Assembly: GCA_963703115.1 (NCBI GenBank)
Contig: OY969788.1
Coordinates: 855,265-919,264 of the forward strand
Length of the DNA: 64,000 bases
Reading direction: 5' to 3'
Source: an uncultured Alphaproteobacteria bacterium
GTDB lineage: Bacteria; Pseudomonadota; Alphaproteobacteria; Sphingomonadales; Sphingomonadaceae
Shown: positions 9,701 through 53,519 of the stretch, in pieces
How the letters are laid out: each line of letters starts with the position of its first letter
How positions within the stretch are numbered: position 1 is the first letter of the stretch
The notes under the pieces: generated by a model
The model's database searches: none
What the model was told of the DNA's origin: nothing
Seen by the model: the letters and a program-made list of their open reading frames with translations, nothing else
Position numbers and translations under genes: made by a program

Positions 9701-10498
9701 ATGCCGATGTCGCACAGTCCGTCCAACAATCCGCTTGTACTTTGCGCGTTTCTGCCACTCCTTGTCGCGGCCTGTTCGGGAGGGAAACCGGAAGACGAGA
9801 ACGTCGCCGCTCCGCCCTCGGTCGATGCCCCGGCACCGGTCAAACGTGAGATTCCGCTGCCCGATTTGGCGCTGGATCGCGAAAGCCTGTTGGTGACCAT
9901 GCTGACGGCCGCCGGAAGTGCGATGACCGGGCTGGACGACGAGGAAGCTCAAAAGGCGCTCAACGGGCGCCGGTTCGAGCTTCGGATGCGCTTCGGTTGT
10001 CCCGGCGCCGACCCTGCCGCCACGAGACGCTGGAGTTTCGATCAGAAATCCGATGCGCTGAAAGTGACCGTAAAGCCCGATCTGTCGATCGAGGTGCCGG
10101 GGGCGGACGAAGATACCAAGCCGACCACCCTGAGTGGTTTTTCGGTGCCGCGCCCGCTGTTACTCGCCAACGGTTGCCCGCTTCCAGAATATCGCGGGAT
10201 CGACCCGGGTGCGCGGATCAACTTTGCGCTTGTCCAGGCGGCCGATCCCGACGCGCCGCGTGCTCGCGCCCTTCTTGCAAGCTATGACATCGTCAAGAAA
10301 ATCTCCCCCGAAGCCGCACCGAACGGCGGTCTCGACCTGTTCCTGAGCGGCCGGATCGAGGCGGACACGCAGGGCAGGACCATTACCTGTTCGCCAGCGG
10401 GTGGACAGGTTCGGTGCCTTGCCCGTGCGACCTTTGACCGGATCGCAATCGAAGATCCCGCCAGTTCGACTTTGGTCGCCGAATGGAGCGCGAACTGA
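9701..10498 (+). CDS. hypothetical lipoprotein
   Basis: The ATG at 9701 gives MPMSHSPSNNPLVLCAFLPLLVAACSGG, a signal peptide with an L-V-A-A-C lipobox. I recognise no family. Confidence 0.55.
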   Translation: MPMSHSPSNNPLVLCAFLPLLVAACSGGKPEDENVAAPPSVDAPAPVKREIPLPDLALDRESLLVTMLTAAGSAMTGLDDEEAQKALNGRRFELRMRFGCPGADPAATRRWSFDQKSDALKVTVKPDLSIEVPGADEDTKPTTLSGFSVPRPLLLANGCPLPEYRGIDPGARINFALVQAADPDAPRARALLASYDIVKKISPEAAPNGGLDLFLSGRIEADTQGRTITCSPAGGQVRCLARATFDRIAIEDPASSTLVAEWSAN

Positions 10499-37437: not shown

Positions 37438-38140
37438 ATGACGCAACAACCCACTTCTTCCGCCAGGCGCGCGGTCGTTCTTCTCTCGGGCGGGCTCGAC
37501 TCCATGGTGTGCGCGGGTCTTGCGCGCGAATCCGGCTACGAGATCCTTGCGCTGACAATCGATTATCACCAGCGCCACCGGGTCGAACTTGAAGCCGCCA
37601 GGCGGATCGCCGCGACCATCGGAGTCGCGCGCCACGTCGTCCTTCCGCTCGACCTCTCGGTGTTCGGCGGATCGGCGCTGACCGCCGATATCGCGGTTCC
37701 AAAAGGCGGAGTGGGAACGGACATCCCGGTCACCTACGTACCGGCCCGCAATATCGTATTCCTGCTCGCTATGCGTAGCATTTGCCGAAGCGGTGGAGGC
37801 GCACGACGTCTATATCGGGGTAAACAGCCTGGATTATTCGGGCTATCCCGACTGCCGCCCCGATTTCATCGCCGCGTTCCAGGCTGCCGCCAACCTTGGC
37901 ACCAAGGCGGGTGATCAAGGTCATGGCTTTGCGATCCAAACCCCACTTCAATATCTGACCAAGGCAGAAATCGCGCTGGAGGCCGAGCGCCTGGGGCTCG
38001 ATTCCGGCATGAGCTGGTCGTGCTATGACCCGACACCGGATCAGCGTCACTGCGGACTGTGCGACAGCTGCCGCTTGCGCAGCGCGGGGTTCGCGGAAGC
38101 TGGACTTGCAGATCCGACCGACTACGCGGCGCGACCATGA
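37438..38140 (+). pseudogene. queC: 7-cyano-7-deazaguanine synthase QueC, frame broken by a 1-nt indel
   Basis: The N-part has AVVLLSGGLDSMVCAG and YVPARNIVFL. The C-part is in ORF 37793..38140 (AEAVEAHDVYIGVNSLDYSGYPDCRPDF, CYDPTPDQRHCGLCDSCRLR zinc site). The frames join between 37771 and 37783, which includes a T3 run at 37781-37783. Confidence 0.88.
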
Positions 38141-39593: not shown

Positions 39594-40333
39594 TCAAGTA
39601 ACTTTGCACGCCGTCGCCAAGTCATTGAGGAAGCTTGGAAAATTTTCCTTCAATGCCCGGTCCGCAGCGGCCATGTCGACGGCCACGCCCAAATCGGCGA
39701 GGCTGGTAACCCCAAATTCGGCAATTCCGCACGGCACGATTCCACTGAAATGGCCGAGGTCTGGCGCGATATTGAGCGAGAATCCGTGCATCGTGACCCA
39801 GCGCTTCACGCGCACGCCCAGCGCTCCGATCTTGGCTTCGGCCGGTCCTTCGCCGACCCAAATGCCGATCCGTCCCGGCGCACGGTGTGCCCTGATCCCA
39901 AGGTCGCCAAGCGCGGCAATCATCCACCCTTCGAGCGCGTGGACGAAACAGCGGACATCCTTGCCCCGTCTGGCAAGGTCGAGGACCAGATAGCCGACCC
40001 GCTGGCCAGGCCCGTGATAGGTGTAACGCCCGCCGCGTCCCGCAGCGAACACCGGGAAACCCTGCGGGTTCATCAGTTCGGAGAATCAGCGCTGGTCCCG
40101 GCGGTAAAAGTCGGCGGATGCTCAAGCAACCAGACCAGTTCTCGGGCGGTGCCGGATTGCACCCCGGCGACCTGCGCCTCCATTTCGGCCAAGGCCTGTG
40201 CATAGGGCACCTGTTCTTCGCTGACGCGCCATTCGATGTCGTCGATCCCGTCCACCGCCGCGACATGGAACCAAGGCTCGCGGCTTGCAAGCCGGTTGCA
40301 AGCTGCCGCGGGTCGTGGAACACAAGGGTCCAA
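39594..40333 (-). pseudogene. lipB: lipoyl(octanoyl) transferase LipB, frame broken by a 1-nt indel
   Basis: The N-part is ORF 40073..40333 ([18 protein letters not shown]). The C-part is ORF 39594..40073 ([49 protein letters not shown]). The frames join near 40075-40080; one extra G/C would read [10 protein letters not shown]. The real start is possibly GTG at 40255. Confidence 0.85.
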
Positions 40334-40344
40334 TCAGGGAAGGA

Positions 40345-41160
40345 ATGCAGATGGGCGCGTTGTCGATTTCAAAGGCGTGGGACGAGACCAAGGCCGTGGT
40401 CGGTCGCGACGGGCGCTTGTTCGCGACCATTTCCCTGGCGCTGGTTGGCCTTCCTCAATTGCTGTCGACGGTGATTGCGCCGGACGCGCAGACTAGCAGC
40501 GACTTTAAGTTGATTGACCTATTCGTTCTTCTGCTTGGCCTCGTGACGTTGGTCGGCCAGCTCGCGATCGCAAGGCTCGCGCTTGCGCCGCCGGTTACCG
40601 TCGGTGAAGCGATCAACCGGGCGATCAAGCGGTTTCCGGTTCAGCTGGGGGTGATCGCGCTGTGCGTTGTCGGCGCGGTCCTGTTGTTCGTGCCATTCTT
40701 TGTGGTCGCAGCAAGCGAGGGCGCTTCCCTGACCGACCGCGCGAGCTTTGAAACGCTTTCGGGCCGGGCAGTGCTGGTGGCTTTTGCAGCAGTGCTGTTG
40801 ATCATCTATTTCGGGTTGCGGCTGGTGCCCCTCAATGCGGTGGTGGTGGCGGAGAAATTAGGCCCGGTCGCTGCTCTTGTGCGGAGCTGGAAATTGACCT
40901 CTGGCAACGTGCTTCGACTGTTCGTCTTTTTCATCGTTGCAGTGATCGTGATGTTCGTCCTGTTGCTTGCGGTGGGCGCGACGGTGGGAGCGCTTGCCGC
41001 TGCGACCCTAGGCGCGCCTGAGCCGCTGTCGGCGGCCGCGCTGGTAATCGGACTGGTCCAAGCGGTGATAACTGCAGCAGTCACCGTCCTGTTCGTGGTG
41101 ATGAGCGTTCGAATTTATACCCAGCTGGCTGGGCGCGACAGCGTCGAACCGTTGGGCTGA
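40345..41160 (+). CDS. hypothetical polytopic membrane protein
   Basis: About 270 aa with 5-6 hydrophobic helices. The N-terminus is MQMGALSISKAWDETKAVVGRDGRLF. I recognise no family with confidence. Confidence 0.55.
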   Translation: MQMGALSISKAWDETKAVVGRDGRLFATISLALVGLPQLLSTVIAPDAQTSSDFKLIDLFVLLLGLVTLVGQLAIARLALAPPVTVGEAINRAIKRFPVQLGVIALCVVGAVLLFVPFFVVAASEGASLTDRASFETLSGRAVLVAFAAVLLIIYFGLRLVPLNAVVVAEKLGPVAALVRSWKLTSGNVLRLFVFFIVAVIVMFVLLLAVGATVGALAAATLGAPEPLSAAALVIGLVQAVITAAVTVLFVVMSVRIYTQLAGRDSVEPLG

Positions 41161-41163
41161 AGT

Positions 41164-42016
41164 CTATTTCCACCGCGCAAGCGGAGGCAGGCTCATCAGG
41201 ATTGCGTCGATGTTGCCGCCGGTCTTGAGGCCGAACAGGGTGCCGCGGTCGTAAAGCAGGTTGAACTCGACGTAGCGCCCGCGGAATTCCAGCAGTGAAT
41301 CCATGTCTTTTTCATCGAACGGCATGTCCATGCGCTTGCGGACCAGTTGCGGGTAGCATGTCGAGGAACGCTTCGCCGACCGCGCGAGTGAAGGCGAAAT
41401 GGGCGTCGAAATGGCCTTCGAGATGATCGTAGAAAATGCCCCCGACCCCGCGTGCCCGCTGGCGATGGGGTAGCCAGAAATAGTCCTCCGCCCACTTGGA
41501 AAACTTGGGATAGAAGGTCGGGTCGTGCGCAGCGCACGCTGCCCGCAAGCGCGCATGGAAGGCTTGCGTGTCTTCATCGTACGGGATCGCTGGATTCAGG
41601 TCCGCGCCGCCACCGAACCATCTTTTGGTGGTGCACAGGAACCGGGTGTTCATGTGGACTGCGGGGACATGCGGGTTGGCCATGTGGGCGACCAGGCTGA
41701 TACCGGTTGCAAAGAAGCGTGGGTCTTCAGCAGCGCCGTTGATCTGTGCCGCGAATTCGGGCGCGAAGCGGCCGCCAACGGTCGACACGTTGACCCCGAC
41801 TTTTTCGAACACTTTCCCGTTCATCTGGCCGCGCACGCCGCCACCGCCGGGCGAACCGTCGTCGGTCTCGCGCGCCCACGGCGTGTAAGTGAAGGCGGCT
41901 TTACTCCCAGCCTCGCGTTCGATTGCCTCGAACGCGGCACAGATCCGTTCGCGCAGGGTCTCGAACCAGTCGCGCGCTGCCTGCTGCTGCTCGTCCAACT
42001 CCAGTTTCTCGCTCAT
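41164..42016 (-). pseudogene. hemF: oxygen-dependent coproporphyrinogen III oxidase HemF, frame broken by a 1-nt indel
   Basis: The N-part is ORF 41312..42016 ([52 protein letters not shown]). The C-part is ORF 41164..41577 ([50 protein letters not shown]). The frames join at the plus-strand GGG 41351-41353. Confidence 0.88.
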
Positions 42017-42026
42017 CGGGCGGGCC

Positions 42027-42247
42027 CTAGTAGATTCGGCGCTGGGCCGCGAGCAACATGCGAAGCAGCATTGCCACCGGGCGCGGCACTCCGACTTTGC
42101 CTTCCAGCCACAAGCTTACCGCGCTGCGCGATACGCCGATCGCCTGGGCAAGGTCGTTCTGGGTCCGGTAGCCAAGGCTGCGCATGGTGCGACGCAATTC
42201 TTCCGGCGCCATGGACGCAAGCATTTCGCGGTTGGTGTTTTCATTCA

Positions 42248-42248
<1 letters not shown>
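42027..42248 (-). CDS. XRE-family helix-turn-helix protein
   Basis: 73 aa with the HTH core QNDLAQAIGVSRSAVSLWLEGK. Its start overlaps the stop of the upstream P-II gene by 1 nt (TGATG). Confidence 0.7.
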
Positions 42249-43429
<1,181 letters not shown>

Positions 43430-43674
43430 GGAAACTTTACTGCTCAAAAAGGGAGCAAGTTTTTCTGAACCCGACGGTATGAGTGCATATGGCATGGCGA
43501 ATAGACTGGTATCGTTCGCCCTGCCGGTTACTTTTGCGCGCACTTGCTTTGTCCGAATTGCCTGCAAGGTCGAGTGAGCTGTGAGATCGTTATGATGCGT
43601 CTTGATCGAGATATAGTGACCATTAACGCCACTCTTTCTGCATTGCGTCGCGCGCTGGGACATTCGGCACAACA

Positions 43675-45339
43675 ATGAATTTCCGCAACATCCTAGAAAT
43701 TGCCGAGCGCTATCGCGCCGCGCTTCTGCGTTTGGCGCTGTTCGCGATAATTTCGTCCGCATCGGCACTGACCCTTCCCTGGTTTGCCGGGGAATTGTTC
43801 GGCACGGTGATTGATCGCGACGCTTCTACCTCGGTTGCAAGGCCGATAGGGTTGCTGGTTGCAGCACTGCTTGTGACGAGCATGTTCAGTGTCATCGCCG
43901 GGATCCAAACCGCGGTTCTTGAAATCCGGGTGCTGACCGATCTGCGCCAGCGAATTTTCGAACATGTCCAGCGACTTCCGATCGGTTTCCACGAGAATAG
44001 GGGTAAGGGAGATACGTTGGCGCTGATGACCTACGAGGTGGGGCATCTTTCGCATTATCTGACCGGGACCATGGCGCTTATTCCCGCCCGCCTTCTTACC
44101 GCAATTGGTGCAATCGCAGCCATGTTCTGGATCAATGCCCGGACGGCGCTGATCGTGCCCTTTCTTATTCCGGCCATTTACCTTTTTCTCAAAATCCTGG
44201 GTCGAAGCCTGCGGGGGGTGGCGGCAGCAATCCAGCATGCCGAAGCCGAGGTCGTCGAGGTTGCTGAGCAATCTCTGGACATTCTCCCGGCGACCAAAGC
44301 CTTCACTCGCGAGGTGATGGCAGCAGCGAATTATCGCGTCGTTACGGAGGAAGCCGCGCGGCTCTCGGTTAATCGCCGTCGGATTGAAGCAATGATCGAT
44401 CCCATGCTGGGGCTGATCGCTGCCGTCGCGTCAATTCTTGTATTGTTGACAGTCGGGCAGGGGTTGCGGGCGGGCAATCTGAATGTCGCCGAGCTTTTCA
44501 GCTTTCTGTTTTATGCGATGCTCCTGACCCGACCAGCAAGCGCATTGTCCCATATTTACGGAGAAACTCAGAACGCCTTGGGAACCAGCGCGCGAATGCA
44601 ATCGGTACTCGAACAATCGGTTGAGCAGATGCGGACGACGAAAAATAGCCGGCGTGCACAAGGCAAGATCGTGTTCGAAAACATCTCGTTCGCTTATCCC
44701 GGGCGGGACAGCCTGTTACGCAACCTCGACCTTGAAATTTCCCCCGGTGAGAAGATCGCGATCGTCGGGCCGAACGGTTCGGGCAAGACCGCGCTCGTCA
44801 ATCTGCTTTTGCGATATTACGAGCCGGACGGGGGGAGAATTCTCCTCGATGATACTGACATTCGCGATTATGGCTTCGCCGACTTGCGGCAGCAAATCGG
44901 GCTGGTTCCGCAAACGCCCCTGCTGTTCAATTCGACGATCCGGGACAATGTGTGCTTCGGCTCGCCAGATGCGTCGCCCGTCGATCTCAACCGCGTTCTC
45001 CAGCTGGCCCAGGCCAAGAAATTTATCGACGACCTTCCAAAAGGGCTCGAGACGACCATCGGCGACCGGGGCGTTCGTTTGTCAGGGGGACAGAAGCAGC
45101 GCCTCGCGCTGGCCCGCGCCTTGATCAAGGACCCTCCGATTCTGATCCTCGATGAAGCGACCTCCATGTTCGATCTGGGTGGGGAAGTCGCGCTGGTTGC
45201 CGGCATCGAAAAGGCGATCAAGGGCCGCACAGTAATCTTTATCACTCACCGCCTGATGTTGCTCGACCTCGCCGACCGTATTTTCGAAATTAATGACGGG
45301 AAGCTGGTGGACATTGGGAAACAGAGAACTCGAAGTTGA
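43675..45339 (+). CDS. ABC exporter, fused permease-ATPase (McjD/MsbA type); candidate lasso-peptide D protein
   Basis: 554 aa: six-TM domain, then Walker A GPNGSGKT, ABC signature LSGGQKQRLALARAL and Walker B ILILDEATS. There is no N-terminal C39 peptidase domain. It is the first gene of the lower-GC island. Confidence 0.88.
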   Translation: MNFRNILEIAERYRAALLRLALFAIISSASALTLPWFAGELFGTVIDRDASTSVARPIGLLVAALLVTSMFSVIAGIQTAVLEIRVLTDLRQRIFEHVQRLPIGFHENRGKGDTLALMTYEVGHLSHYLTGTMALIPARLLTAIGAIAAMFWINARTALIVPFLIPAIYLFLKILGRSLRGVAAAIQHAEAEVVEVAEQSLDILPATKAFTREVMAAANYRVVTEEAARLSVNRRRIEAMIDPMLGLIAAVASILVLLTVGQGLRAGNLNVAELFSFLFYAMLLTRPASALSHIYGETQNALGTSARMQSVLEQSVEQMRTTKNSRRAQGKIVFENISFAYPGRDSLLRNLDLEISPGEKIAIVGPNGSGKTALVNLLLRYYEPDGGRILLDDTDIRDYGFADLRQQIGLVPQTPLLFNSTIRDNVCFGSPDASPVDLNRVLQLAQAKKFIDDLPKGLETTIGDRGVRLSGGQKQRLALARALIKDPPILILDEATSMFDLGGEVALVAGIEKAIKGRTVIFITHRLMLLDLADRIFEINDGKLVDIGKQRTRS

Positions 45340-45464
45340 GCCGGGGGATTGAGATGCGCCCTATTCGCATTTCGACGAACTTCACGAGCGCAAGCTCCGC
45401 ATAATTCCAGATTGCCACCGCGCGCCGGTGGGGATGTCTCCAGCAGAGTGAGGAGAAAAAGAGC

Positions 45465-47354
45465 TTGAGCGGAGTGGCAGCCATTATCCGATTTGACGGT
45501 GGTGAGGTTGAACCCGGCTTGATCGAAAAAATCACGGCGGCGATGAGTTATCGGGGCTGTGACGGGATACGTCACCTTTCGCGCGGATCCATCGCGTTAG
45601 GTCATTGCATGTTACACACGACCAAGGAGTCGCTGGAAGAAACTCAGCCGCTTTGCAATGAGGACGAAAGCTTGATGCTGGTCATGGATGGCTGGCTCAG
45701 CAATTGGACTGAACTTCGCTCCGAACTGATTGCTCGAGGATCGCATTTACGCACGCGCTCCGACGCTGAACTTGTACTGCGTGCCTACGAAGTCTGGGGT
45801 GAGGATTGCCCACAGCATATCGACGGCGAGTTCGCTTTCGTCATCTGGGACCAGAACCGTCGCGAAGCGTTCGTAGCCGGCGATCACGTCGGTTTAAAAC
45901 CACTGCATTATCACTGGGATGGCCGCCAACTTGTCGTTGCCTCCGACATTGTGGGCGTGTTGGCGATGCCGGGTTTTTCACGCGAACCAAACCTGGCGCG
46001 AATATCGGAATATCTTAAATTCGAATGGGGCACGCGTGGGCAGACAATCTGGAAGGGCGTGTCTCGCGCCGTTCCCGCACACTCGATGCGATTTAGAAAC
46101 GGCCATTGCGAGAGCAGGAAATATTGGGAACCGCCGCTTGAAACCACCATTTTCTATAAGCGCGACGAGGAATATTTCGAACACTACCGGCACCTTTTTA
46201 CCGAATGCGTCCGCAGAGCATCGCGAACGCACAAGCCGCTTGCTTGCGACGTCAGCGGCGGGCTGGATTCCTCAGCTGTTTTTGCAATGGCTCATGAACT
46301 GCGGCGCAAGGGGACCCTGCCCGCACCTGGGGTCAAGGGCTACACCTATTTTTTCAAAGATGCCGAAGGCACCGAACACGACGAGATTGAATATGCGCGT
46401 GCGACCGCACGACACCTGGGGGTAGCTCTTAAAGAGGTCCCGCCTTTCCTTCCCGATATGCAGTGGTTTCTGGAGCGCGGGCGGATGGACTGTGACATCG
46501 CCGGCTATCCTAACGGAGCAATGTCGATCGCCATTGGCAAAACCCTGGTCGCCGATGGCTGCCGCGTGAGTTTGAACGGCGAGGGCGGCGATGAATTCTT
46601 GGCTGGAACTCGATTTTACTTCGCTGAGCAGCTCGCGGCGCGCGAGTGGGGCAAGTTATCGCAGACCTTTATCGAAGATACGGCCGAAATCGGTCTACGA
46701 AAAACGGCCTGGAACCTGTTGCGTTTCGGGCTTGCTCCGATGTTGCCGGTCCCGGTTTTGGAGGTGCTCCGCAATCTTCGGGAACGCCGACGGATAGGCG
46801 AGTTGGACAAAGCTGCCTGGATCAAAGCGGAATTGAGGAACTCGGCGAATCTAAAGGGATTGAGGCCTGGTCATGAACTAATGCAATTGGCCAAGTCGGC
46901 TCGTCGCTGCAAACATCTGGTCCTGAATGATCCCTTTGCGCTGGTGGTTTGGGACCAGTTCTCACGACAAAGTGCCAGAGTTGGCTACGAAATTCGCACT
47001 CCAATGTACGCAAGAGAATTCATCGACTTCTCCTTTGCCACGCCCGAGCGGATCAGGCTTCGGGGAGAGCGCCGGAAATTTATTCATGTCAGAGCGCTTG
47101 AGGGATTGCTTCCCGAAGTCGTGGCCAATCGAAAAACCAAGGCAGACTTCGGAATTGCCTTTACCCGCCTTCTTGAAATGGTGAAGAGTCATTTAATGGA
47201 TGCGGTAGATGGGGATGGTTCCGACTACCTAGACAAGAAAGGGCTCGCACGATTGTTCGAGCGGCAGCAGGCGGAGCCGGACGATTTCCGGTTGGTCTGG
47301 CATGTGTGGACGCTTTTCGAATTGAATGATATTTTGATGCAAAATGAGAATTAA
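45465..47354 (+). CDS. asparagine-synthetase-like protein lacking the Cys nucleophile; candidate lasso cyclase (C protein)
   Basis: 629 aa with a TTG start preceded by GAGGAG. The N-terminus is MSGVAAI rather than MCG. AsnB fold motifs are present (LGHCMLH, SDAELVL, GEFAFVIWD, GLKPLHY) together with the ATP-PPase loop DVSGGLDSSAVFAM. Confidence 0.8.
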   Translation: MSGVAAIIRFDGGEVEPGLIEKITAAMSYRGCDGIRHLSRGSIALGHCMLHTTKESLEETQPLCNEDESLMLVMDGWLSNWTELRSELIARGSHLRTRSDAELVLRAYEVWGEDCPQHIDGEFAFVIWDQNRREAFVAGDHVGLKPLHYHWDGRQLVVASDIVGVLAMPGFSREPNLARISEYLKFEWGTRGQTIWKGVSRAVPAHSMRFRNGHCESRKYWEPPLETTIFYKRDEEYFEHYRHLFTECVRRASRTHKPLACDVSGGLDSSAVFAMAHELRRKGTLPAPGVKGYTYFFKDAEGTEHDEIEYARATARHLGVALKEVPPFLPDMQWFLERGRMDCDIAGYPNGAMSIAIGKTLVADGCRVSLNGEGGDEFLAGTRFYFAEQLAAREWGKLSQTFIEDTAEIGLRKTAWNLLRFGLAPMLPVPVLEVLRNLRERRRIGELDKAAWIKAELRNSANLKGLRPGHELMQLAKSARRCKHLVLNDPFALVVWDQFSRQSARVGYEIRTPMYAREFIDFSFATPERIRLRGERRKFIHVRALEGLLPEVVANRKTKADFGIAFTRLLEMVKSHLMDAVDGDGSDYLDKKGLARLFERQQAEPDDFRLVWHVWTLFELNDILMQNEN

Positions 47355-47376
47355 CCCATTTAGACCGAGGTGAAGC

Positions 47377-47779
47377 TTGCCGAGCGAAAAGAGCGCAGTT
47401 GCGAATGAACCTGGCGCCAAGCCCGACAAAGCGAATGTCGGGACGAAGCTGGAATATGAAACTCCGACACTGACAATTTATGGTTCAGTCAGGGAACTAA
47501 CGGGGTCAGGGTCAGGCGGGTCTTCCGATGGTGGCATGCCCATGGCCGTCGTCGGATTCTGCTGTAAAAGAACATGTCGTGCGGGTCGGGGACCATCCGG
47601 CCGGCTTCGGGATATACCTGTTCGATTACAAGCCGGAGTTCCGCAACTCATTTGGTCATGGTCGACAATTTGGCGTCATCGCAGATGAAGTTGAGCGGGT
47701 TGTCCCCGAGGCCGTCACCATTGGCAGCGATGGCTACAGGCGGGTTTGCTACAGCTTGCTTGGGATCGAACGACAGTGA
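47377..47779 (+). CDS. lasso-type RiPP precursor (YxxPxLx3Gx5TxG leader), apparently continuing across a 1-nt frame break into a peptidase-S74 autoprocessing domain
   Basis: Frame A starts at the TTG at 47377 (GAGGTG 5 nt upstream) and reads MPSEKSAVANEPGAKPDKANVGTKLEYETPTLTIYGSVRELTG|SGSGGSSDGGM.... Frame B is open from 47501 to TGA 47777-47779 and reads ...PWPSSDSAVKEHVVRVGDHPAGFGIYLFDYKPEFRNSFGHGRQFGVIADEVERVVPEAVTIGSDGYRRVCYSLLG, the S74/CIMCD pattern with S-D-x-x-x-K. Deleting one C of the CCC run 47539-47541 fuses them into a 133-aa protein. Confidence 0.6.
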
Positions 47780-47817
47780 TCCAAACGCTTCTCGATTAAT
47801 ATCATTGGTCCCCTGTT

Positions 47818-48942
47818 TTGCTGACAACGCTGGAAGAGCATCACGGCTATCTCTCTGACGAGAGGCGCCTTGAGAGATTCCGCGAAGCAATTGGCCATGC
47901 GGTTCGGCCGGGTGATCTTGTCGCCGACGTTGGCTGCGGTTTCGGGATACTTGGACTGATGTGCCTTCAGGCGGGCGCCTCTAGAGTATGGGGGATCGAC
48001 CGAACGGACGCGATTGAAATTGCCCGGGAGAGCTTGGGTCGCGCGGGTTTTGGCGACCGCTACACCTGCATTCGTGATCATTCGTCCCGGGTGATCTTGC
48101 CAGAAATGGTTGATGTCATCGTCTGCGATAACGTCGGTTATTTCGGGATAGATTACGGCATCGTCGAAACACTGGCCGACGCTCGTCGCCGTTTCCTCAA
48201 ACCAGGCGGCCGGATAGTGCCCAGCCGGATCAGGCTGATGCTGGCCGGGGTTGCTTCGCCAGAATGCCGCGGCAAGGCAGAAGGCTGGGACGATCCGCGC
48301 GTACCCGACGAATATCATTGGCTGCGCGAATTCGGGGTCAATTCGAAATTTGCGCACATGTTTGAAACGGATGAAATCGCTACCGAGTCTCTCATCGTCG
48401 GCACGATTGATCTCAATACGGACAGCCCAGACACATTTTCATGCCAAGTGTCCCTGACTGCCACTCAAGACGCTGTACTGGATGGGCTCGGTGGGTGGTT
48501 CGAGTGCGAGCTGTCGCCGGACAATTGGATGACGAATTCACCGCTTGCGCACGATCAAATCGACAGGCCACAAATCTTTCTGCCTTTCGATACGCCGATC
48601 ACTGTTGGCGCGGGTGACAGTGTAGAAGTTTCAATCGTTGTTCGCCATGATGCGCACCTGTTCGCTTGGAGCGTGCGAGACCCCCGGACGGGCGTAAAGC
48701 AGAAACAATCTACTTGGCGAAGTCGCATTCTGGCTGAATCCGATCTGTCTCCGAAGTCTGATCGGCCATTGCAACTTAGTGCCGAAGGCCATGCGCGCAG
48801 CATTATTTGCGACTATGTCGACGGCAATCGCAGTGCGCGGCAAATTGAGGATGCCGTTTTGTCCGATCATCCCGATTTACTCCCGTCGTCCGAAGAAATC
48901 CGCCGATTTGTGGGAAAAGAATTGGCCCGGAACGCTCGATGA
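47818..48942 (+). CDS. PRMT-fold class I SAM methyltransferase with C-terminal PqqD-like (RRE) extension
   Basis: LEEHHGYLSDERRLERFREAIGHAVRPGDLVADVGCGFGILGLMCLQAGASRVWGIDRTD matches the protein arginine methyltransferase signature and SAM motif I. GGWFECELS...NSPLAH...QIFLPFDTPITVGAGDSV resembles the PRMT beta-barrel. The last ~70 aa (ARSIICDYVDGNRSARQIEDAVLSDHPDLLPSSEEIRRFVGKEL) look PqqD-like. Confidence 0.7.
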   Translation: MLTTLEEHHGYLSDERRLERFREAIGHAVRPGDLVADVGCGFGILGLMCLQAGASRVWGIDRTDAIEIARESLGRAGFGDRYTCIRDHSSRVILPEMVDVIVCDNVGYFGIDYGIVETLADARRRFLKPGGRIVPSRIRLMLAGVASPECRGKAEGWDDPRVPDEYHWLREFGVNSKFAHMFETDEIATESLIVGTIDLNTDSPDTFSCQVSLTATQDAVLDGLGGWFECELSPDNWMTNSPLAHDQIDRPQIFLPFDTPITVGAGDSVEVSIVVRHDAHLFAWSVRDPRTGVKQKQSTWRSRILAESDLSPKSDRPLQLSAEGHARSIICDYVDGNRSARQIEDAVLSDHPDLLPSSEEIRRFVGKELARNAR

Positions 48943-49799
48943 TCTTTCATCTGGAGCAATTGGCCGCAAAGCCGCAAGGTGAGATCGAAGACAGTCCATA
49001 TGACCGCTGGCTGAGCGTCGAAGGCCAGGACGTCGCGCTATTTTACCGTACGGACCAAAGCTTTTTGGTGCGGTTCCAGGATAAGGCAGATTTTGAATTA
49101 TCTGTCGGTAGGGGGGTCGTCACCTGCACGCCGGCGCCTGACGTTTCGGGTCAAACGACGATCGATCTGTTTCACAACCAGGTGATCCCCCTACTTCTCA
49201 ATCATCAGGGCGAATTGGTGCTCCATGGAAGCGCTGTTGCTGGAAGCACTGGCGCCCTGGGTTTCATCGGGCAATCGGGCAGCGGCAAGTCAACGATTGC
49301 AGCCTATTTTGCGAAGGCAGGCCATCCGTTCATGACCGACGATGGCCTGTTTTTGAAGGAAGCGGGATCCGCATATAACGTTGAACCTTATCGTCCCTAC
49401 CTGCGTCTTTGGTCTGACAGCAATCAAGCGGTGCTTGGCCGGAAGCCTCCCACCGCGGAGGAGGGAGAAGACAACAAAACACTGATCGATGCCGGGCCAT
49501 CACTTCCATTTCAGGAGACGCCGTTGCCGCTGGCTGCGCTATATCTTCTAGGCAGTAGGGAGGTGGAGAAGGTTTCGGTCGAACGCATGAAGCCCGACCT
49601 GGCGCTATTGGCGTTGCTAAAGCACTCCTTCATCCTTGATGTGGACGATCGCCAACGGTTGAAAGCCCATTTCGAACGTTTGGCAAAGCTGTCGGAAGCA
49701 ATTCTATGCTTCACTCTCGAATATCCGCGGGATTATGGGGTGTTCCCCGAGTTGATCCCCACGGTTCTTAACCACGCGTCATCGGAAGGTGTCTTATGA
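48939..49799 (+). CDS. HPr-kinase-related serine kinase (RiPP/lasso tailoring kinase type)
   Basis: 286 aa with an ATGA overlap with the methyltransferase gene. VLHGSAVAGSTGALGFIGQSGSGKSTIAAYFAKAGHPFMTDDGLF matches the HprK C-terminal P-loop region (Walker A at 49269-49295). Confidence 0.75.
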   Translation: MIFHLEQLAAKPQGEIEDSPYDRWLSVEGQDVALFYRTDQSFLVRFQDKADFELSVGRGVVTCTPAPDVSGQTTIDLFHNQVIPLLLNHQGELVLHGSAVAGSTGALGFIGQSGSGKSTIAAYFAKAGHPFMTDDGLFLKEAGSAYNVEPYRPYLRLWSDSNQAVLGRKPPTAEEGEDNKTLIDAGPSLPFQETPLPLAALYLLGSREVEKVSVERMKPDLALLALLKHSFILDVDDRQRLKAHFERLAKLSEAILCFTLEYPRDYGVFPELIPTVLNHASSEGVL

Positions 49800-50080
49800 A
49801 TTTAACCGACAAGATGGTCGCCTCGGACGAAGTCGTCGCTCGTGACGTGGGAGGCGAAACTGTCCTTCTGAATCTCGCGAGTGGCACCTATTTCGGTCTC
49901 AACTCGGTCGGTGCGCGAATTTGGACCATCGTCGAAAATGACGAAAACTTAAGCATGTCGCAAGTTTGCGACACCTTAGCGAATGAATTTGATGTCTCGC
50001 GTCAGCAGTTAGAGGGCGATGTACTGAACCTTGCGACTGAACTCGTCGAACAAAAGCTTGTCGTCATCAAGGAAGAATAG
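49796..50080 (+). CDS. PqqD-family protein (lasso B1 / RiPP recognition element)
   Basis: 94 aa with an ATGA overlap with the kinase gene. VVARDVGGETVLLNLASGTYFGLNSVGARIWTIVENDENLSMSQVCDTLANEFDVSRQQLEGDVLNLATELVEQKLV is a textbook PqqD pattern. Confidence 0.85.
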   Translation: MNLTDKMVASDEVVARDVGGETVLLNLASGTYFGLNSVGARIWTIVENDENLSMSQVCDTLANEFDVSRQQLEGDVLNLATELVEQKLVVIKEE

Positions 50081-50123
50081 ACTGTTTCGCATCACGGCAA
50101 AATAACATCATCTGATCGTCAAA

Positions 50124-50966
50124 TCAGAGTATCTGGCTGACGTCACTTAGCTCGCTCAATTCAGGAATACCGAATAGCTCGGCCCATGTTTTCGGCTGGC
50201 ATAGGTCGGAAGTCCCCACCGGGATGTAATGAAGGAACAGCAGGTCACAAAATTGCCGACCAGGGTTGCGAGGCAGCGGTTCACGGAAATGCCACTGATT
50301 GGTACCGGAAAATAAAACCGCGTCTCCCGGCTGCAAGACCTCCTGCGTAAAGCGCATTTTCGGGTCCGATGGCACGGCGTTAAAGTCGACGCTCTCCAGT
50401 TCGGACCTTGTTTCGGGCCATGGTACAGGGCGGCTGAAGCTGATTGGCCACGGGTCACTTTGGTCGATGCAAATGTCGAGCGTCCATTTTGCCGAAGGAG
50501 CATCAAGATGGGGCCGACATACGCCGCGGCCAGTATACAGGCTCAAGAAATTGTAGCTCGGCTCAACCAACTCGCCGGCGAGTTCGGACACTGCTTCAAC
50601 TAGTCGGGATTGCAGTTCGGTGAAGGGCGGCCAGCGATGAACAATAAAGCGGCCGAACTCTTCAGCTTCGGTCAGATTGAGGGATTCGCGGGGGATCTTC
50701 CTGATCGTGTCCCGGATTTCGTCCAGCTGCAATTCGCTCAGGAAGTCGGACACAAACCGCTGGGTGAAGTCCGGTGCTATGCGCAAGGGATCGAAGCTGC
50801 GTTCAAACTCCTGCAGGCGAGCGGGTGCAACACGCGCAATGATTTCTTTCGCCTCGATATATTTTGTCAGCCAGATCGAATCATACCAGCGCTTTTCCCG
50901 CGCAATCGGGTTTGAGCCCTGTTTCCTAGCGGCTGTCAGCACTTTGATCCGTCCATTTTCGTTCAC
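50124..50966 (-). CDS. putative Fe(II)/2-oxoglutarate-dependent oxygenase
   Basis: 280 aa. LSLYTGRGVCRPHLDAPSAKWTLDICI carries an HxD (His153/Asp155). LQPGDAVLFSGTNQWHFREP carries a distal His226. The spacing fits the 2-His-1-carboxylate facial triad of a cupin. This is motif-level evidence only. Confidence 0.45.
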   Translation of the reverse strand: MNENGRIKVLTAARKQGSNPIAREKRWYDSIWLTKYIEAKEIIARVAPARLQEFERSFDPLRIAPDFTQRFVSDFLSELQLDEIRDTIRKIPRESLNLTEAEEFGRFIVHRWPPFTELQSRLVEAVSELAGELVEPSYNFLSLYTGRGVCRPHLDAPSAKWTLDICIDQSDPWPISFSRPVPWPETRSELESVDFNAVPSDPKMRFTQEVLQPGDAVLFSGTNQWHFREPLPRNPGRQFCDLLFLHYIPVGTSDLCQPKTWAELFGIPELSELSDVSQIL

Positions 50967-51025
50967 TTAAACAGATTTCGAGTCGCCCTCACTGCTTGTT
51001 TTCCGATGCAGGAGCCAATTCGAAT

Positions 51026-52192
51026 TCAATTCTTCACCCGATCAGGGCGACTGCGAAGCAGGTCGATAATACGCCTGACATATAGCGCCGCTAATGGAAA
51101 ATTTTGCATGCTCGGATATTTTCCGCGCAGGAAATTCGCAGGAGGAAGTGTCCGTTGAGCCAGAAATCTGACTTTGTTGCGAAGCCCTTTCACAGCTTTC
51201 AGATCCTGTAGCGCCCGACCTGCCTGGCCCAGTTCAAGCAGATAGATAGAGGGACCGGACGCAGAAGCGGGTGCCTGGCCTAGGCGCTCCATCACGCCTG
51301 ACGATACAACAGTATCGAAGTGGCTCATCGCGAACTTCAAACCATCGAGGCAAACCGGCGCCAGTTCCATTCGAATGGCGGTCTCGCAAAACGCGCTCCA
51401 CTCTGCTTGCGAAAGTGCACCGGCAAGGAGGTGAATATCATAGGCCCAGATCAGCCGGTCGCCGCCATAATAAGTCACACCGTCGACCATGTATGGACTG
51501 GTGATATGGGTGGCGCGATGCATGGACGCATGGATCAGCATTGTCGCGCGATCCATCGTGAAGGCATTGTCGTCGAGGAGCGGCAGGACTCGCTTGTTCG
51601 CGGCGCAATCAGCGAAAACAAGCGTTTGGCGAAGCGCCATCGAATTCATCGCTTGCCAGTGGAGATCGATGACATGGTTAGTCCCATCCCCTGAAGCGAA
51701 GTTCCAGATTTCCTGGAGTTCAAGATCGTCGGATCTTCCAGCGCACGGCGGGGCCAAGCAAAAGCCGCATTTGGCGAGCGCAAGCCGGGTCTGTTCCAAC
51801 TCCTCCCGCTTTACCAAAAGGTCGGTGTCTCCACGTGCGCGAGTGGCGGGTTTCGCGTAAAGATCGTAGGCTAAAGCGGTGCCTTTCAGGATAAGGGATT
51901 TGATCCCATTTTGACGAAGTTCGGCAAGAAGCCGTGTGAGCATTTGTCTATGACGGACTTCCCACATTTCCTGCGCGATTGCCTGCTGGTGCAAGCGTTC
52001 GAACACTTCCTTGGGCCATCCAATCGGCCGGCCTTCGATCAGCAGGCCAGCGATGCCATGATAGAGCGCGCGATCAACAACGGCCGCCCAAGTCGATGCG
52101 TGATTCCAATGATCCGGCCAGGCGGTACAGCAATTGCCCAACGTTCTTGAAAAGAACCGATCGATTGAATCGCTCAAATTGGCCATTGCCAT
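51026..52192 (-). CDS. NTP_transf_5-type uncharacterised nucleotidyltransferase
   Basis: 388 aa. GIKSLILKGTALAYDLYAKPATRARGDTDLLVKREE and HVIDLHW fit the family that accompanies HprK-like kinases and PqqD proteins in kinase-containing lasso clusters. Confidence 0.65.
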   Translation of the reverse strand: MAMANLSDSIDRFFSRTLGNCCTAWPDHWNHASTWAAVVDRALYHGIAGLLIEGRPIGWPKEVFERLHQQAIAQEMWEVRHRQMLTRLLAELRQNGIKSLILKGTALAYDLYAKPATRARGDTDLLVKREELEQTRLALAKCGFCLAPPCAGRSDDLELQEIWNFASGDGTNHVIDLHWQAMNSMALRQTLVFADCAANKRVLPLLDDNAFTMDRATMLIHASMHRATHITSPYMVDGVTYYGGDRLIWAYDIHLLAGALSQAEWSAFCETAIRMELAPVCLDGLKFAMSHFDTVVSSGVMERLGQAPASASGPSIYLLELGQAGRALQDLKAVKGLRNKVRFLAQRTLPPANFLRGKYPSMQNFPLAALYVRRIIDLLRSRPDRVKN

Positions 52193-52397
52193 TGATTACT
52201 GGGGCCGGATTGACCACCCGTCAATTTGTGGACCACTTCGCTGGATCACCGGACATCCTTCTTGACGGTCAGCCCTCCGACCACCGCCGAAGCGGACGGA
52301 CTACGCAGGTGCGAAGCCGAGGCTTGGAAAAATTTTGTCCTTGGGGACTGTTCACTATCACGCCGCGAGGCCAAGGTAGCGGTCAGATGCGTCCAGC

Positions 52398-53519
52398 ATG
52401 CACGCGTTGGCAGGCCGGGATTGCAGCAATGCGCGACCTGCTATTTCCAGGAGCCGGAGGAAGTCGAGTTTGTTCCCCTATTTCCTCCTTTTGACTTACT
52501 TCGGCTTAGGGGCGCTCGCGACCCCCCAGGCGTCGAGTGAACCGCGCCGCGGTTTCCAGCCGATCTTCTTGTTCGGGATTTTGCTGATCGTGGTGATGGT
52601 GGGCCTGCGCTATCGCGTTGGCGCGGACTGGGGAAATTACCTGCGCATCTACCAGACGTTCGGACGATTAAGTTTCGAATCGGCGGTCGGTAGAGGTGAA
52701 GCGGGCTACATGTTCTTCAACTGGCTCGGCTATCAATGGCGGACCGGCATCTGGCTTCCCAACCTGGTTTGCGCAGCGATCTTCGGGTTCGGGCTTGCAA
52801 GATTATGCCGCATCCAGCCCAACCCCATGCTGGCAGCGACCATTGCGATCCCGTATCTCACCGTGGTGGTGGCGATGGGATACACCCGGCAAAGCGCCGC
52901 GATCGGTTTCGCAATGTGGGCGATTGCCGACATGATCAAGCGCCAGTCGATCATCCGGTTCTTTTTCATCCTGGCCTTGGGGGCGTTGTTCCACAAATCG
53001 GTCGTCGTGGTCGCGGCATTCGTGCTGATGACAGGTGAGAAGAACCGCCTCCTTAAAGGGCTGGTTTCAGCCGTCCTGATCGTCGTGCTGTTCCAGTTTT
53101 TCCTCCAGGACTCGCTCGACAAGTACAAGACCAACTACCTCGATGCCCGCTACCAGTCGCAAGGCGCAGCAATCCGGGTGGCGATCGACGGCTTGGCAGC
53201 GATTATCTTCTTCCTGATGAACAAAGACATGCGATTTAGCGTCATCGAGCGCCAGTTGTGGCGCAATTTTTCGATCGTTTCGCTGATCATGTTGGTCGCC
53301 TTGCTAGTGACCCCGTCCTCGACCGCGATCGATCGGCTTTCGCTCTATCTCGTGCCCTTGCAGATCGCGGTCTTCGCACAGGTTCCCTATGTGCGAGGCG
53401 GGCGTCAGGGCGGTGTGGCGGGAGTGGTCGTCTATTCGGCCCTGGTGCTGACAGTATGGCTGCTGTTTGCAGTTCATGCCCGGGCGTGGCTTCCGTACCG
53501 AATGATCGTCTTCACATGA
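52398..53519 (+). CDS. EpsG-family polysaccharide polymerase-like membrane protein (start uncertain)
   Basis: A polytopic membrane ORF with GLRYRVGADWGNYLRIY near the N-terminus, as in EpsG/O-antigen polymerase-like proteins. An internal TTG near 52467 may be the real start. Confidence 0.7.
   Translation: MHALAGRDCSNARPAISRSRRKSSLFPYFLLLTYFGLGALATPQASSEPRRGFQPIFLFGILLIVVMVGLRYRVGADWGNYLRIYQTFGRLSFESAVGRGEAGYMFFNWLGYQWRTGIWLPNLVCAAIFGFGLARLCRIQPNPMLAATIAIPYLTVVVAMGYTRQSAAIGFAMWAIADMIKRQSIIRFFFILALGALFHKSVVVVAAFVLMTGEKNRLLKGLVSAVLIVVLFQFFLQDSLDKYKTNYLDARYQSQGAAIRVAIDGLAAIIFFLMNKDMRFSVIERQLWRNFSIVSLIMLVALLVTPSSTAIDRLSLYLVPLQIAVFAQVPYVRGGRQGGVAGVVVYSALVLTVWLLFAVHARAWLPYRMIVFT

Follow-up and report, generated by a model that had tools for sequence, protein, structure and literature searches.

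A lasso-peptide precursor gene from a family with a fused Peptidase_S74 domain, which lies here in the +1 frame

How does a lasso peptide obtain its C-terminus when no stop codon follows the core? This question is raised by a gene in a 64,000-nucleotide stretch of DNA from an uncultured alphaproteobacterium of the Sphingomonadaceae (assembly GCA_963703115.1, contig OY969788.1, positions 855,265 to 919,264). The whole stretch is called the window below; its own numbering is used throughout, and features lie on the + strand unless stated otherwise. Normally, the holding of the tail during ring closure and the definition of the C-terminus are left to the cyclase and to a stop codon. Positions 47377-47550 of the window are a genuine lasso-peptide precursor gene, composed of a leader and a core, which is a solid but ordinary claim. 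The interesting part of the locus is not this plain lasso identity. It is the fusion of the family's precursors to a Peptidase_S74 domain and the frame-offset state of this domain here. The C-terminus of the core is predicted to be set by this conserved fused domain, the most unusual feature of the locus, which was absent from a preliminary description of the DNA. Overall, the locus is probably best explained as a lasso precursor of an S74-fusion family in which the S74 domain has been decoupled by one base.

The precursor frame opens at TTG 47377 and encodes (M)PSEKSAVANEPGAKPDKANVGTKLE-YETPTLTIYGSVRELTG-SGSGGSSDGGMPMAVVGFCC, i.e. MPSEKSAVANEPGAKPDKANVGTKLE-YETPTLTIYGSVRELTG-SGSGGSSDGGM.... 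By direct reading, a Shine-Dalgarno-like GAGGTG (47367..47372) is situated 4 nt 5' of this start codon, and DNA alignment pairs the TTG with the ATG start of a close relative on a metagenome contig, L074. The leader peptide comprises 43 codons (47377..47505) and ends at Gly43 (47503-47505). Its recognition motif YETPTLTIYGSVRELTG (47455-47505) places Tyr at -17, Pro at -14, Leu at -12, Gly at -8, Thr at -2 and Gly at -1, so that the spacing counted back from Gly43 in the preliminary description is correct. The NCBIfam hidden Markov model (HMM) NF033521, 'lasso_leader_L3', matches residues 27-44 with 25.2 bits against a cut-off of 19. Furthermore, all six translated frames of the window together contain the pattern Y..P.L...G.....T. 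a single time, at 47455, compared with an expectation of 0.09 matches per shuffled window. The assignment of the leader is completed by the invariance of its key residues in a family alignment, described below.

The predicted core, SGSGGSSDGGMPMAV, comprises 15 residues (47506..47550). It starts with the small residue Ser1 (47506-47508) and carries Asp8 (47527-47529), the predicted acceptor of the macrolactam, within the positions 7-9 at which an Asp or Glu is sought in lasso cores. Both residues read as the preliminary description had stated them, and an acidic residue is kept in all 113 homologues whose motifs could be parsed. The end of the core was placed by homology with P0001, P0003, L074, L155 and L156. 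Since the relatives read GGMPMAV directly before SD (P0001), NGMPMA directly before SD (P0003) and SNMPMAA (L074), the frame shift is located at 47551 and the core is SGSGGSSDGGMPMAV. A frame correction had been proposed earlier directly after Met-Pro, giving the core SGSGGSSDGGMPWPS, but this is the wrong place according to the relatives. Consequently, the Trp of ...MPWPS, once considered a possible steric plug, does not belong to the homology-based core, which is free of any aromatic residue. The calculated mass of the lasso form of SGSGGSSDGGMPMAV is M = 1277.5016 Da, equivalent to [M+H]+ 1278.509, compared with 1347.527 for the version ending in ...MPWPS.

The gene is called a lasso precursor because of the match to the leader HMM, the adjoining cyclase, the downstream PqqD protein and the Asp/Glu conserved in the homologues. 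The cyclase (C), an asparagine-synthase homologue of 629 aa (45465..47354) with Pfam Asn_synthase and GATase_7 matches, ends 22 nt before the precursor start. It scores 316 bits on NF033535 (lasso isopeptide cyclase), below the cut-off of 525 bits. The PqqD-family protein (49796..50080) is the B1 protein, i.e. the recognition element (RRE) for RiPPs (peptides that are ribosomally synthesised and then modified post-translationally). It gives 59.8 bits with Pfam PqqD and 61 bits with NF033536, whose cut-off is 80 bits. Both neighbours are conserved across related loci. Together with about 186 homologues, these data bear out the lasso identity proposed earlier. In contrast, the preliminary description had spoken of binding to 'either RRE', whereas the family HMM search across the window found no second one besides the PqqD protein at 49796-50080.

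To define the family, the window precursor with its two frames joined was searched against a collection of 5.8 billion proteins. The 186 homologues are almost all single open reading frames (ORFs) of 120-145 aa and cover 80-100% of the query, with a leader, a core of 14-26 aa and a Peptidase_S74 domain in one ORF. In an alignment of 28 members (A1), the leader Y, P, L, G and T as well as the S, D and K of the S74 motif S-D-x3-K are invariant. In a larger alignment of 117 members, S59 and K64 of this motif are invariant, and little or no variation is seen at the five leader positions. The core Asp/Glu is nearly invariant in the family alignments. Among the 113 parsable members it occupies position 8 in 71 and position 9 in 40, and the other 2 have an acidic residue at 7 as well as at 8. 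The first core residue of these members is G, A, S, N or T and rarely D, while the last residue varies between A, T, P, S and V. Small Gly/Ser/Met-rich core tails are typical of the family, which is one reason why the attached domain may play a part in keeping the thread in place.

The same layout was found in 71 genomes in a scan of one genome per species. The Sphingomonadales hosts include Croceibacterium, Novosphingobium, Aurantiacibacter and Erythrobacter; Thiobacillaceae, Competibacteraceae, Burkholderiales, Lysobacterales, Mesorhizobium, Cyanobium and Acidobacteriota are found among the others. Hence, the family spans Alpha-, Beta- and Gammaproteobacteria, Cyanobium and Acidobacteriota. 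Another 80 loci came from a scan of metagenomes, and among 1.84 billion cluster representatives a profile search matched 81 clusters (50% identity) at E <= 1e-30. The neighbourhood is shared as well. A cyclase is present in 66 of 73 related loci, usually directly upstream of the precursor, and the same 73 loci contain an HprK-like protein (62), PqqD (56), a methyltransferase resembling protein arginine methyltransferases (PRMTs; 55), an ATP-binding cassette (ABC) exporter (39), an NTP_transf_5 protein (35) and a homologue of a conserved protein encoded at 50124-50966 (17). The leader peptidase B2 is encoded in 37 of the 48 loci of at least 15 kb. Loci devoid of B2 include cultured Aurantiacibacter genomes with a gene layout like that of the window. 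An in-frame member from Aurantiacibacter sediminis (L030) has the core GSLGNVGDGGIMTMAM with a calculated lasso mass of M = 1491.652 ([M+H]+ 1492.659). NCBI names the homologues 'tail fiber domain-containing protein'. In the full text of 7.7 million PMC papers and 0.34 million bioRxiv preprints, which leaves subscription-only literature uncovered, no report was found of a lasso or other RiPP precursor joined to an S74, intramolecular-chaperone or tail-fibre domain.

Some members deviate from this layout. Two Erythrobacter genes (L071, 10001-10378; L073, 10001-10357) are orphans which encode leader, an exceptionally long Gly/Met-rich core of about 30 aa and S74, with no cyclase, PqqD or other cluster gene within 10 kb. 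Three loci (L045, L050 and L056) have two precursor genes each, near 10157 and 10534 or 13114, with differing cores. P0139, available as a protein only (746 aa), combines a cyclase with leader, core and S74 in a single ORF and may be a true C-A fusion or the result of a lost stop codon. P0098, P0108 and P0115 contain S-E instead of S-D at the S74 site, and the latter two possess longer cores with Cys. Short S74-only proteins among the cluster representatives resemble N-terminally truncated gene calls.

In the window, the Peptidase_S74 domain, an intramolecular chaperone with autoprocessing activity in its known settings, lies in the +1 frame and spans 75 codons plus a stop codon (47552..47779). 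The frame-corrected protein matches PF13884 with 29.3 bits against a cut-off of 22. In the S-D-x3-K motif, the predicted nucleophile Ser is encoded at 47552-47554 and the dyad Lys at 47567-47569. A comparison of the family profile with PDB sequences retrieved the intramolecular chaperone auto-processing (ICA) domain of MyRF (7dc3, E = 1.2e-4), of which residues 46-113 of 179 are spanned, as well as the phage long-tail-fibre chaperone 6f45. In the AlphaFold (AF2) model of P0001, the predicted local distance difference test score (pLDDT) is about 90 over residues 60-130, while leader and core are disordered, with low pLDDT over the N-terminal 58 residues. Foldseek with this model against the predicted structures of BFVD gave 15 matches at E <= 1e-3, headed by phage 'intramolecular chaperone auto-processing domain' proteins (best E = 1.8e-7), in line with an S74 fold. 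Foldseek against the PDB returned nothing significant; the model is a monomer and the crystallised domain an intertwined trimer. S74 domains are expected downstream of a fibre; here, the region upstream of S74 consists of the disordered RiPP leader and core.

In MyRF, cleavage takes place between P586 and S587, and the dyad S587/K592 is equivalent to S911/K916 of endoNF (PMC8326128). By analogy, the S74 domain of the lasso family would cleave itself immediately before the Ser. Two close relatives are instructive here. In L155 (757-942), the precursor ends with ...LTGSGTGGAFDGGMPMA and a stop codon (GGMPMA-stop), contains no S74 domain and is directly followed by the methyltransferase gene. L156 (946-1119) is a stand-alone precursor ending with ...LTGSGTGGSSDGGMPML and a stop codon (GGMPML-stop), again lacking S74. 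Both stop within one residue of the cut point predicted in P0003 and P0001 and thus provide natural support for the predicted cut site.

The two halves of the gene in the window are separated by a single extra base (g) at 47551, which puts S74 in the +1 frame. DNA alignment with the in-frame loci L157 (GCG GTA TCC GAC) and L158 and with L074 resolves its position to about 47548-47551. Homology to the relatives extends in frame 0 through ATG CCC ATG GCC GTC and resumes in the +1 frame with TCG GAT (Ser-Asp). Removal of a single base yields a protein with 68% identity to P0001. The same offset is present in L074, a 1349-bp NCBI metagenome contig of Illumina type which is independent of the window. 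Frame 0 of L074 is closed by a TGA precisely at the junction and thus encodes a precursor of normal size (59 aa) that ends with ...SGSGGNSDSNMPMAAN and a stop codon, while its S74 domain lies in the +1 frame with Thr replacing the nucleophile Ser. The alignment of window and L074 is ungapped through the junction, and the distance from ATG to GAT is 10 nt in both. When each part is compared in its own frame, omega is 0.097 for the S74 stretch (synonymous divergence, dS, 1.28) and 0.092 for leader plus core (dS 1.88), whereas omega exceeds 1.5 in the wrong frames. Both sequences also contain, 8-10 codons before S/T-D, a Shine-Dalgarno-like GGCGG together with a +1-frame ATG or GTG; the candidate internal start of the window is ATG 47528.

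Among about 158 fetched loci, L074 is the only one sharing the split between leader and S74 frames, apart from the broken loci L066 and L068, and the 80 loci of the metagenome scan yielded no further frame-offset relatives. L066 and L068 (Microflora Danica metagenome-assembled genomes, about 10001-10400) contain frameshifts inside S74, L066 additionally an in-frame stop in the core. These defects may be assembly errors or real pseudogenes, and the two loci were excluded as evidence. By their flanking genes, the window, L074, the in-frame L158 and the S74-less L155 belong to one clade. A neighbour-joining (NJ) tree of the 107-aa precursor alone pairs the window with P0001; this is misleading, the C-termini of the two cyclases being only 34% identical. 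The view that the offset is ancestral to the window and L074, and that S74 is hence under selection in the +1 frame, was downgraded after a bootstrap of 406 columns.

That the offset is real and that S74 is still used, probably from an internal start, is in our view little short of an even call, and a number of findings weigh against it or against the lasso interpretation behind it. Frame 0 has no stop after the core, where a lasso precursor should end soon afterwards. It continues for 45 further codons to 47688, giving, unless recoding occurs, a product of 103 aa, whereas the family norm is the S74 fusion. This read-through tail (VGFCCKRTC...RHRR-stop, 47551..47688) is non-conserved, its counterpart in L074 meets stop codons at once, and it is probably non-functional sequence. 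The largest residues of the core tail are Met and Pro, and there is no large plug. The B2 peptidase, which the preliminary description had invoked and which a lasso cluster should contain, was undetected in the 64-kb window both by tblastn and by a three-round family HMM over its six-frame ORFs (best E > 1). Cleavage of MyRF needs a trimer, and its C-terminal coiled-coil helix is the main driver of trimerisation (PMC8326128). The S74 domain of the family ends about 75 aa after the Ser, approximately where this helix begins, and the AF2 model of P0001 is devoid of a long terminal helix, so that no trimeric coiled coil is apparent. With the coiled coil missing and a trimer required, self-cleavage cannot be assumed. 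In the 406-column NJ analysis, L074 groups with L158 (bootstrap 75%) rather than with the window (25%), which means that the shared offset may not be inherited. Moreover, the candidate internal starts lie at different positions in the window and L074. A slippery sequence is missing from the junction in both, and no RNA structure downstream of it is conserved. Finally, three housekeeping genes 6-10 kb upstream of the precursor, queC (37438-38140, +), lipB (39594-40340, -) and hemF (41100-42016, -), are each split across two frames, in queC and hemF at sites outside homopolymer runs. This suggests either that the assembly may be indel-prone or that these are real pseudogenes, and it calls for caution with every frameshift of the window.

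The last of these points bears on an artefactual origin of the offset, by which base 47551 would be spurious and the gene an ordinary in-frame member in which GGMPMAV continues into SDSAVKEH. The two halves of queC correspond to consecutive positions of Pfam QueC (1-101 and 102-209) and those of hemF to Coprogen_oxidas 4-206 and 209-271, about 155 other family loci are in frame, and a single deletion suffices to restore a protein resembling P0001. However, the independent contig L074 has the same offset with the same spacing, a random indel would hit the junction of about 4 nt in a 400-nt gene only about 1% of the time, and the seven larger genes of the island (about 8 kb) show no frameshift against their homologues. 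An assembly error is improbable. A more serious alternative, possible if still rather doubtful, is that S74 is being lost through a real, recent and possibly recurrent inactivating frameshift, leaving a young remnant in the +1 frame. The mutation would have arisen twice, separately in the window and in L074, or a single time in an ancestor. The locus would now produce, or fail to produce, a precursor standing on its own, and the window copy, having neither a stop codon nor a B2, may itself be defective. This account fits the clade, which holds the S74-deleted L155, the S74-less L156 and L074 with its junction TGA. It also fits the Thr at the nucleophile position of L074, the grouping of L074 with the in-frame L158, and the missing recoding signal and B2. 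On the other hand, apart from the nucleophile of L074, neither the window nor L074 has lost any of the invariant S74 residues. Moreover, both sequences retain 75 codons without a stop despite a dS of about 1.3, so either both events are very recent or the domain is still used. The GGCGG and +1-frame start codon present in both likewise argue for continued use.

A fused leader-core-S74 product could also arise by programmed +1 ribosomal frameshifting at the junction. The equal offset and spacing in two diverged sequences, a frame-0 junction codon that is slow or a stop (GGA in the window, TGA in L074) and an omega of about 0.1 in both halves would agree with such recoding. Nevertheless, we regard it as very unlikely. 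After a +1 shift, neither of the P-site codons, GUC and AAC, could pair anew, a Shine-Dalgarno-like stimulator is missing 3 nt upstream, and a shift at this codon would skip the catalytic Ser. Downstream of the junction, the window and L074 give different RNA folds whose advantage over shuffled sequence is weak (z = -1.7 and -2.3), and upstream of it folding of the two sequences gave no structure. Thus, a conserved slippery or hungry-codon motif with a stimulator is lacking, and only two sequences carry the offset. Hardly credible at all is the idea that the gene encodes no RiPP and that its product is instead a small S74 protein of tail-fibre type, disordered at the N-terminus, in which the lasso-like motif is a coincidence. 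It would account for the NCBI name of the homologues and for the low pLDDT of the N-terminal 58 residues. It is contradicted by the family-wide conservation of five leader positions and of the core Asp/Glu 8 or 9, by the lasso cyclase that immediately precedes the gene in 66 of 73 loci, accompanied by PqqD and in most cases B2, and by the S74-less versions, which are typical short lasso precursors.

The remaining genes around the precursor complete a biosynthetic island. Upstream of the cyclase lie the ABC exporter (D; 43675..45339; Pfam ABC_membrane and ABC_tran) and a sugar-phosphate nucleotidyltransferase. The gene following the precursor encodes a PRMT-like S-adenosylmethionine-dependent methyltransferase (47818..48942; Pfam PrmA, PRMT5_C and PRMT_C) that matches PRMT1 in the PDB with E = 4e-22. 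This bacterial homologue of eukaryotic protein arginine methyltransferases adjoins the precursor in 55 of 73 related loci, yet Arg is rare in the cores. Next to it, an HprK-related, ScmC-like P-loop protein (48939..49799) has weak matches to TIGR04352 and TIGR04355, scoring 31.7 against an NCBIfam cut-off of 200. Its homologues show a weak Pfam ScmC match, and the protein is a candidate tailoring kinase. On the - strand, downstream of PqqD, a conserved 280-aa protein (50124..50966) has no match in Pfam, NCBIfam or the PDB. Homologues 56-58% identical occur in the same place in L001 and L002, and motifs of the PHLD...H type hint at an oxygenase. It is followed by an NTP_transf_5 nucleotidyltransferase on the same strand (51026..52192; Pfam PF14907, 103 bits), a class known from phospho-glycosylated lasso clusters (PMC8498205). 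A scan of 42000-52600 for promoters and terminators gave the same counts as shuffled sequence, and no terminator separates the precursor from the methyltransferase gene. The G+C content of the island (about 42.6-52.2 kb) is 54-57% compared with about 62% in its flanks, which is consistent with horizontal acquisition.

Combined, these components suggest a possible maturation pathway. PqqD (49796-50080) would bind the leader through Tyr-17, Pro-14 and Leu-12, as is established for this class of motif. The leader would then be removed after Thr-2/Gly-1, by B2 where it is present and in the window perhaps by a protease encoded elsewhere; pseudomycoidin, which is made without a leader peptidase, provides a precedent (PMC8498205). 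The cyclase (45465-47354) is predicted to close the ring around the tail by linking the amine of Ser1 with the side chain of Asp8. In fused members, S74 might cut immediately N-terminal to the Ser of S-D-x3-K, as in phage fibres and MyRF, and so free the C-terminus of the lasso. It would then act as a built-in follower protease and perhaps as a bulky stopper until cleavage. That lasso machinery processes C-terminal protein fusions is indicated by Zong 2016 (cited in PMC8498205). In the window, the S74 module may be produced from the internal start (ATG 47528) or by recoding, or may be under loss as in close relatives. The PRMT-like methyltransferase, the HprK-like protein and the nucleotidyltransferase would add tailoring, and the ABC transporter would export the product. 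Known lasso kinases act on a C-terminal Ser (PMC8498205), which is mostly missing from the cores of this family. We tentatively propose, while leaning somewhat to the doubtful side, a natural lasso class with a truncated S74 autoprotease that keeps the tail in place, acting as a stopper or as a module for oligomerisation, before it excises itself, the module of the window being still used via its +1 frame through internal initiation or recoding.

If true, a self-cleaving precursor domain would represent a new route of C-terminal processing in RiPPs and a maturation logic not described before, and it would add a third context for S74 after phage fibres and MyRF. The predicted minimal autoprotease of about 75 aa could serve as a comparator for the phage and MyRF domains. 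Lasso peptides are valued as stable scaffolds, and such a family would offer a natural precedent for lasso-protein fusions. Genome miners seeking short ORFs alone would miss such leader-core-S74 precursors. In addition, the clade near the window, with fused, frame-offset and S74-deleted versions, constitutes a natural experiment on the necessity of the domain.

In comparison with known systems, the caulonodins IV-VII and other alphaproteobacterial lassos are reported to share Ser or Ala at position 1 and a ring closed on Asp or Glu 8 or 9. Their clusters are said to encode a fused B protein and often an isopeptidase, and their peptides to use bulky plugs. Unlike the present locus, caulonodin-type clusters reportedly contain no S74 domain, PRMT-like methyltransferase or HprK-like gene. 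Closer in content are the kinase and nucleotidyltransferase lasso clusters of paeninodin, pseudomycoidin and, putatively, Sphingobium yanoikuyae (PMC8498205). They share with the window the Thr -2 and YxxPxL of the leader, a split B1 (PqqD), the cyclase, the ABC exporter, an HprK-related protein and NTP_transf_5. Like the window cluster, in which none was detected, pseudomycoidin also manages without a leader peptidase. In contrast, known precursors of the paeninodin type are short, terminated by a stop codon and phosphorylated on a C-terminal Ser, whereas here an S74 continuation follows a variable last residue. Compared with the paeninodin-type clusters, the HprK-like protein falls far below the NCBIfam cut-off here, and the PRMT-like methyltransferase is the most constant partner.

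The S74 domains of phage fibres and MyRF share with the lasso family the S-D-x3-K dyad as well as the sequence and fold of the 'donut' part. There, however, the domain follows a trimeric beta-helix or fibre, while here it follows a RiPP leader and core. The S74 domain of the lasso family is only about 75 aa long and devoid of the C-terminal coiled-coil helix of MyRF, and its genes reside in bacterial chromosomes within biosynthetic clusters. The nearest parallel to the fusion itself is found in the engineered astexin-1 fusions (Zong, Maksimov and Link 2016), in which a folded protein is likewise attached to the tail of a lasso (cited in PMC8498205), showing that threading by a cyclase is possible even when the tail runs on into a domain. 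These fusions are artificial and rely on a designed linker without self-removal; the present family, in contrast, is natural and widespread and carries its own predicted protease.

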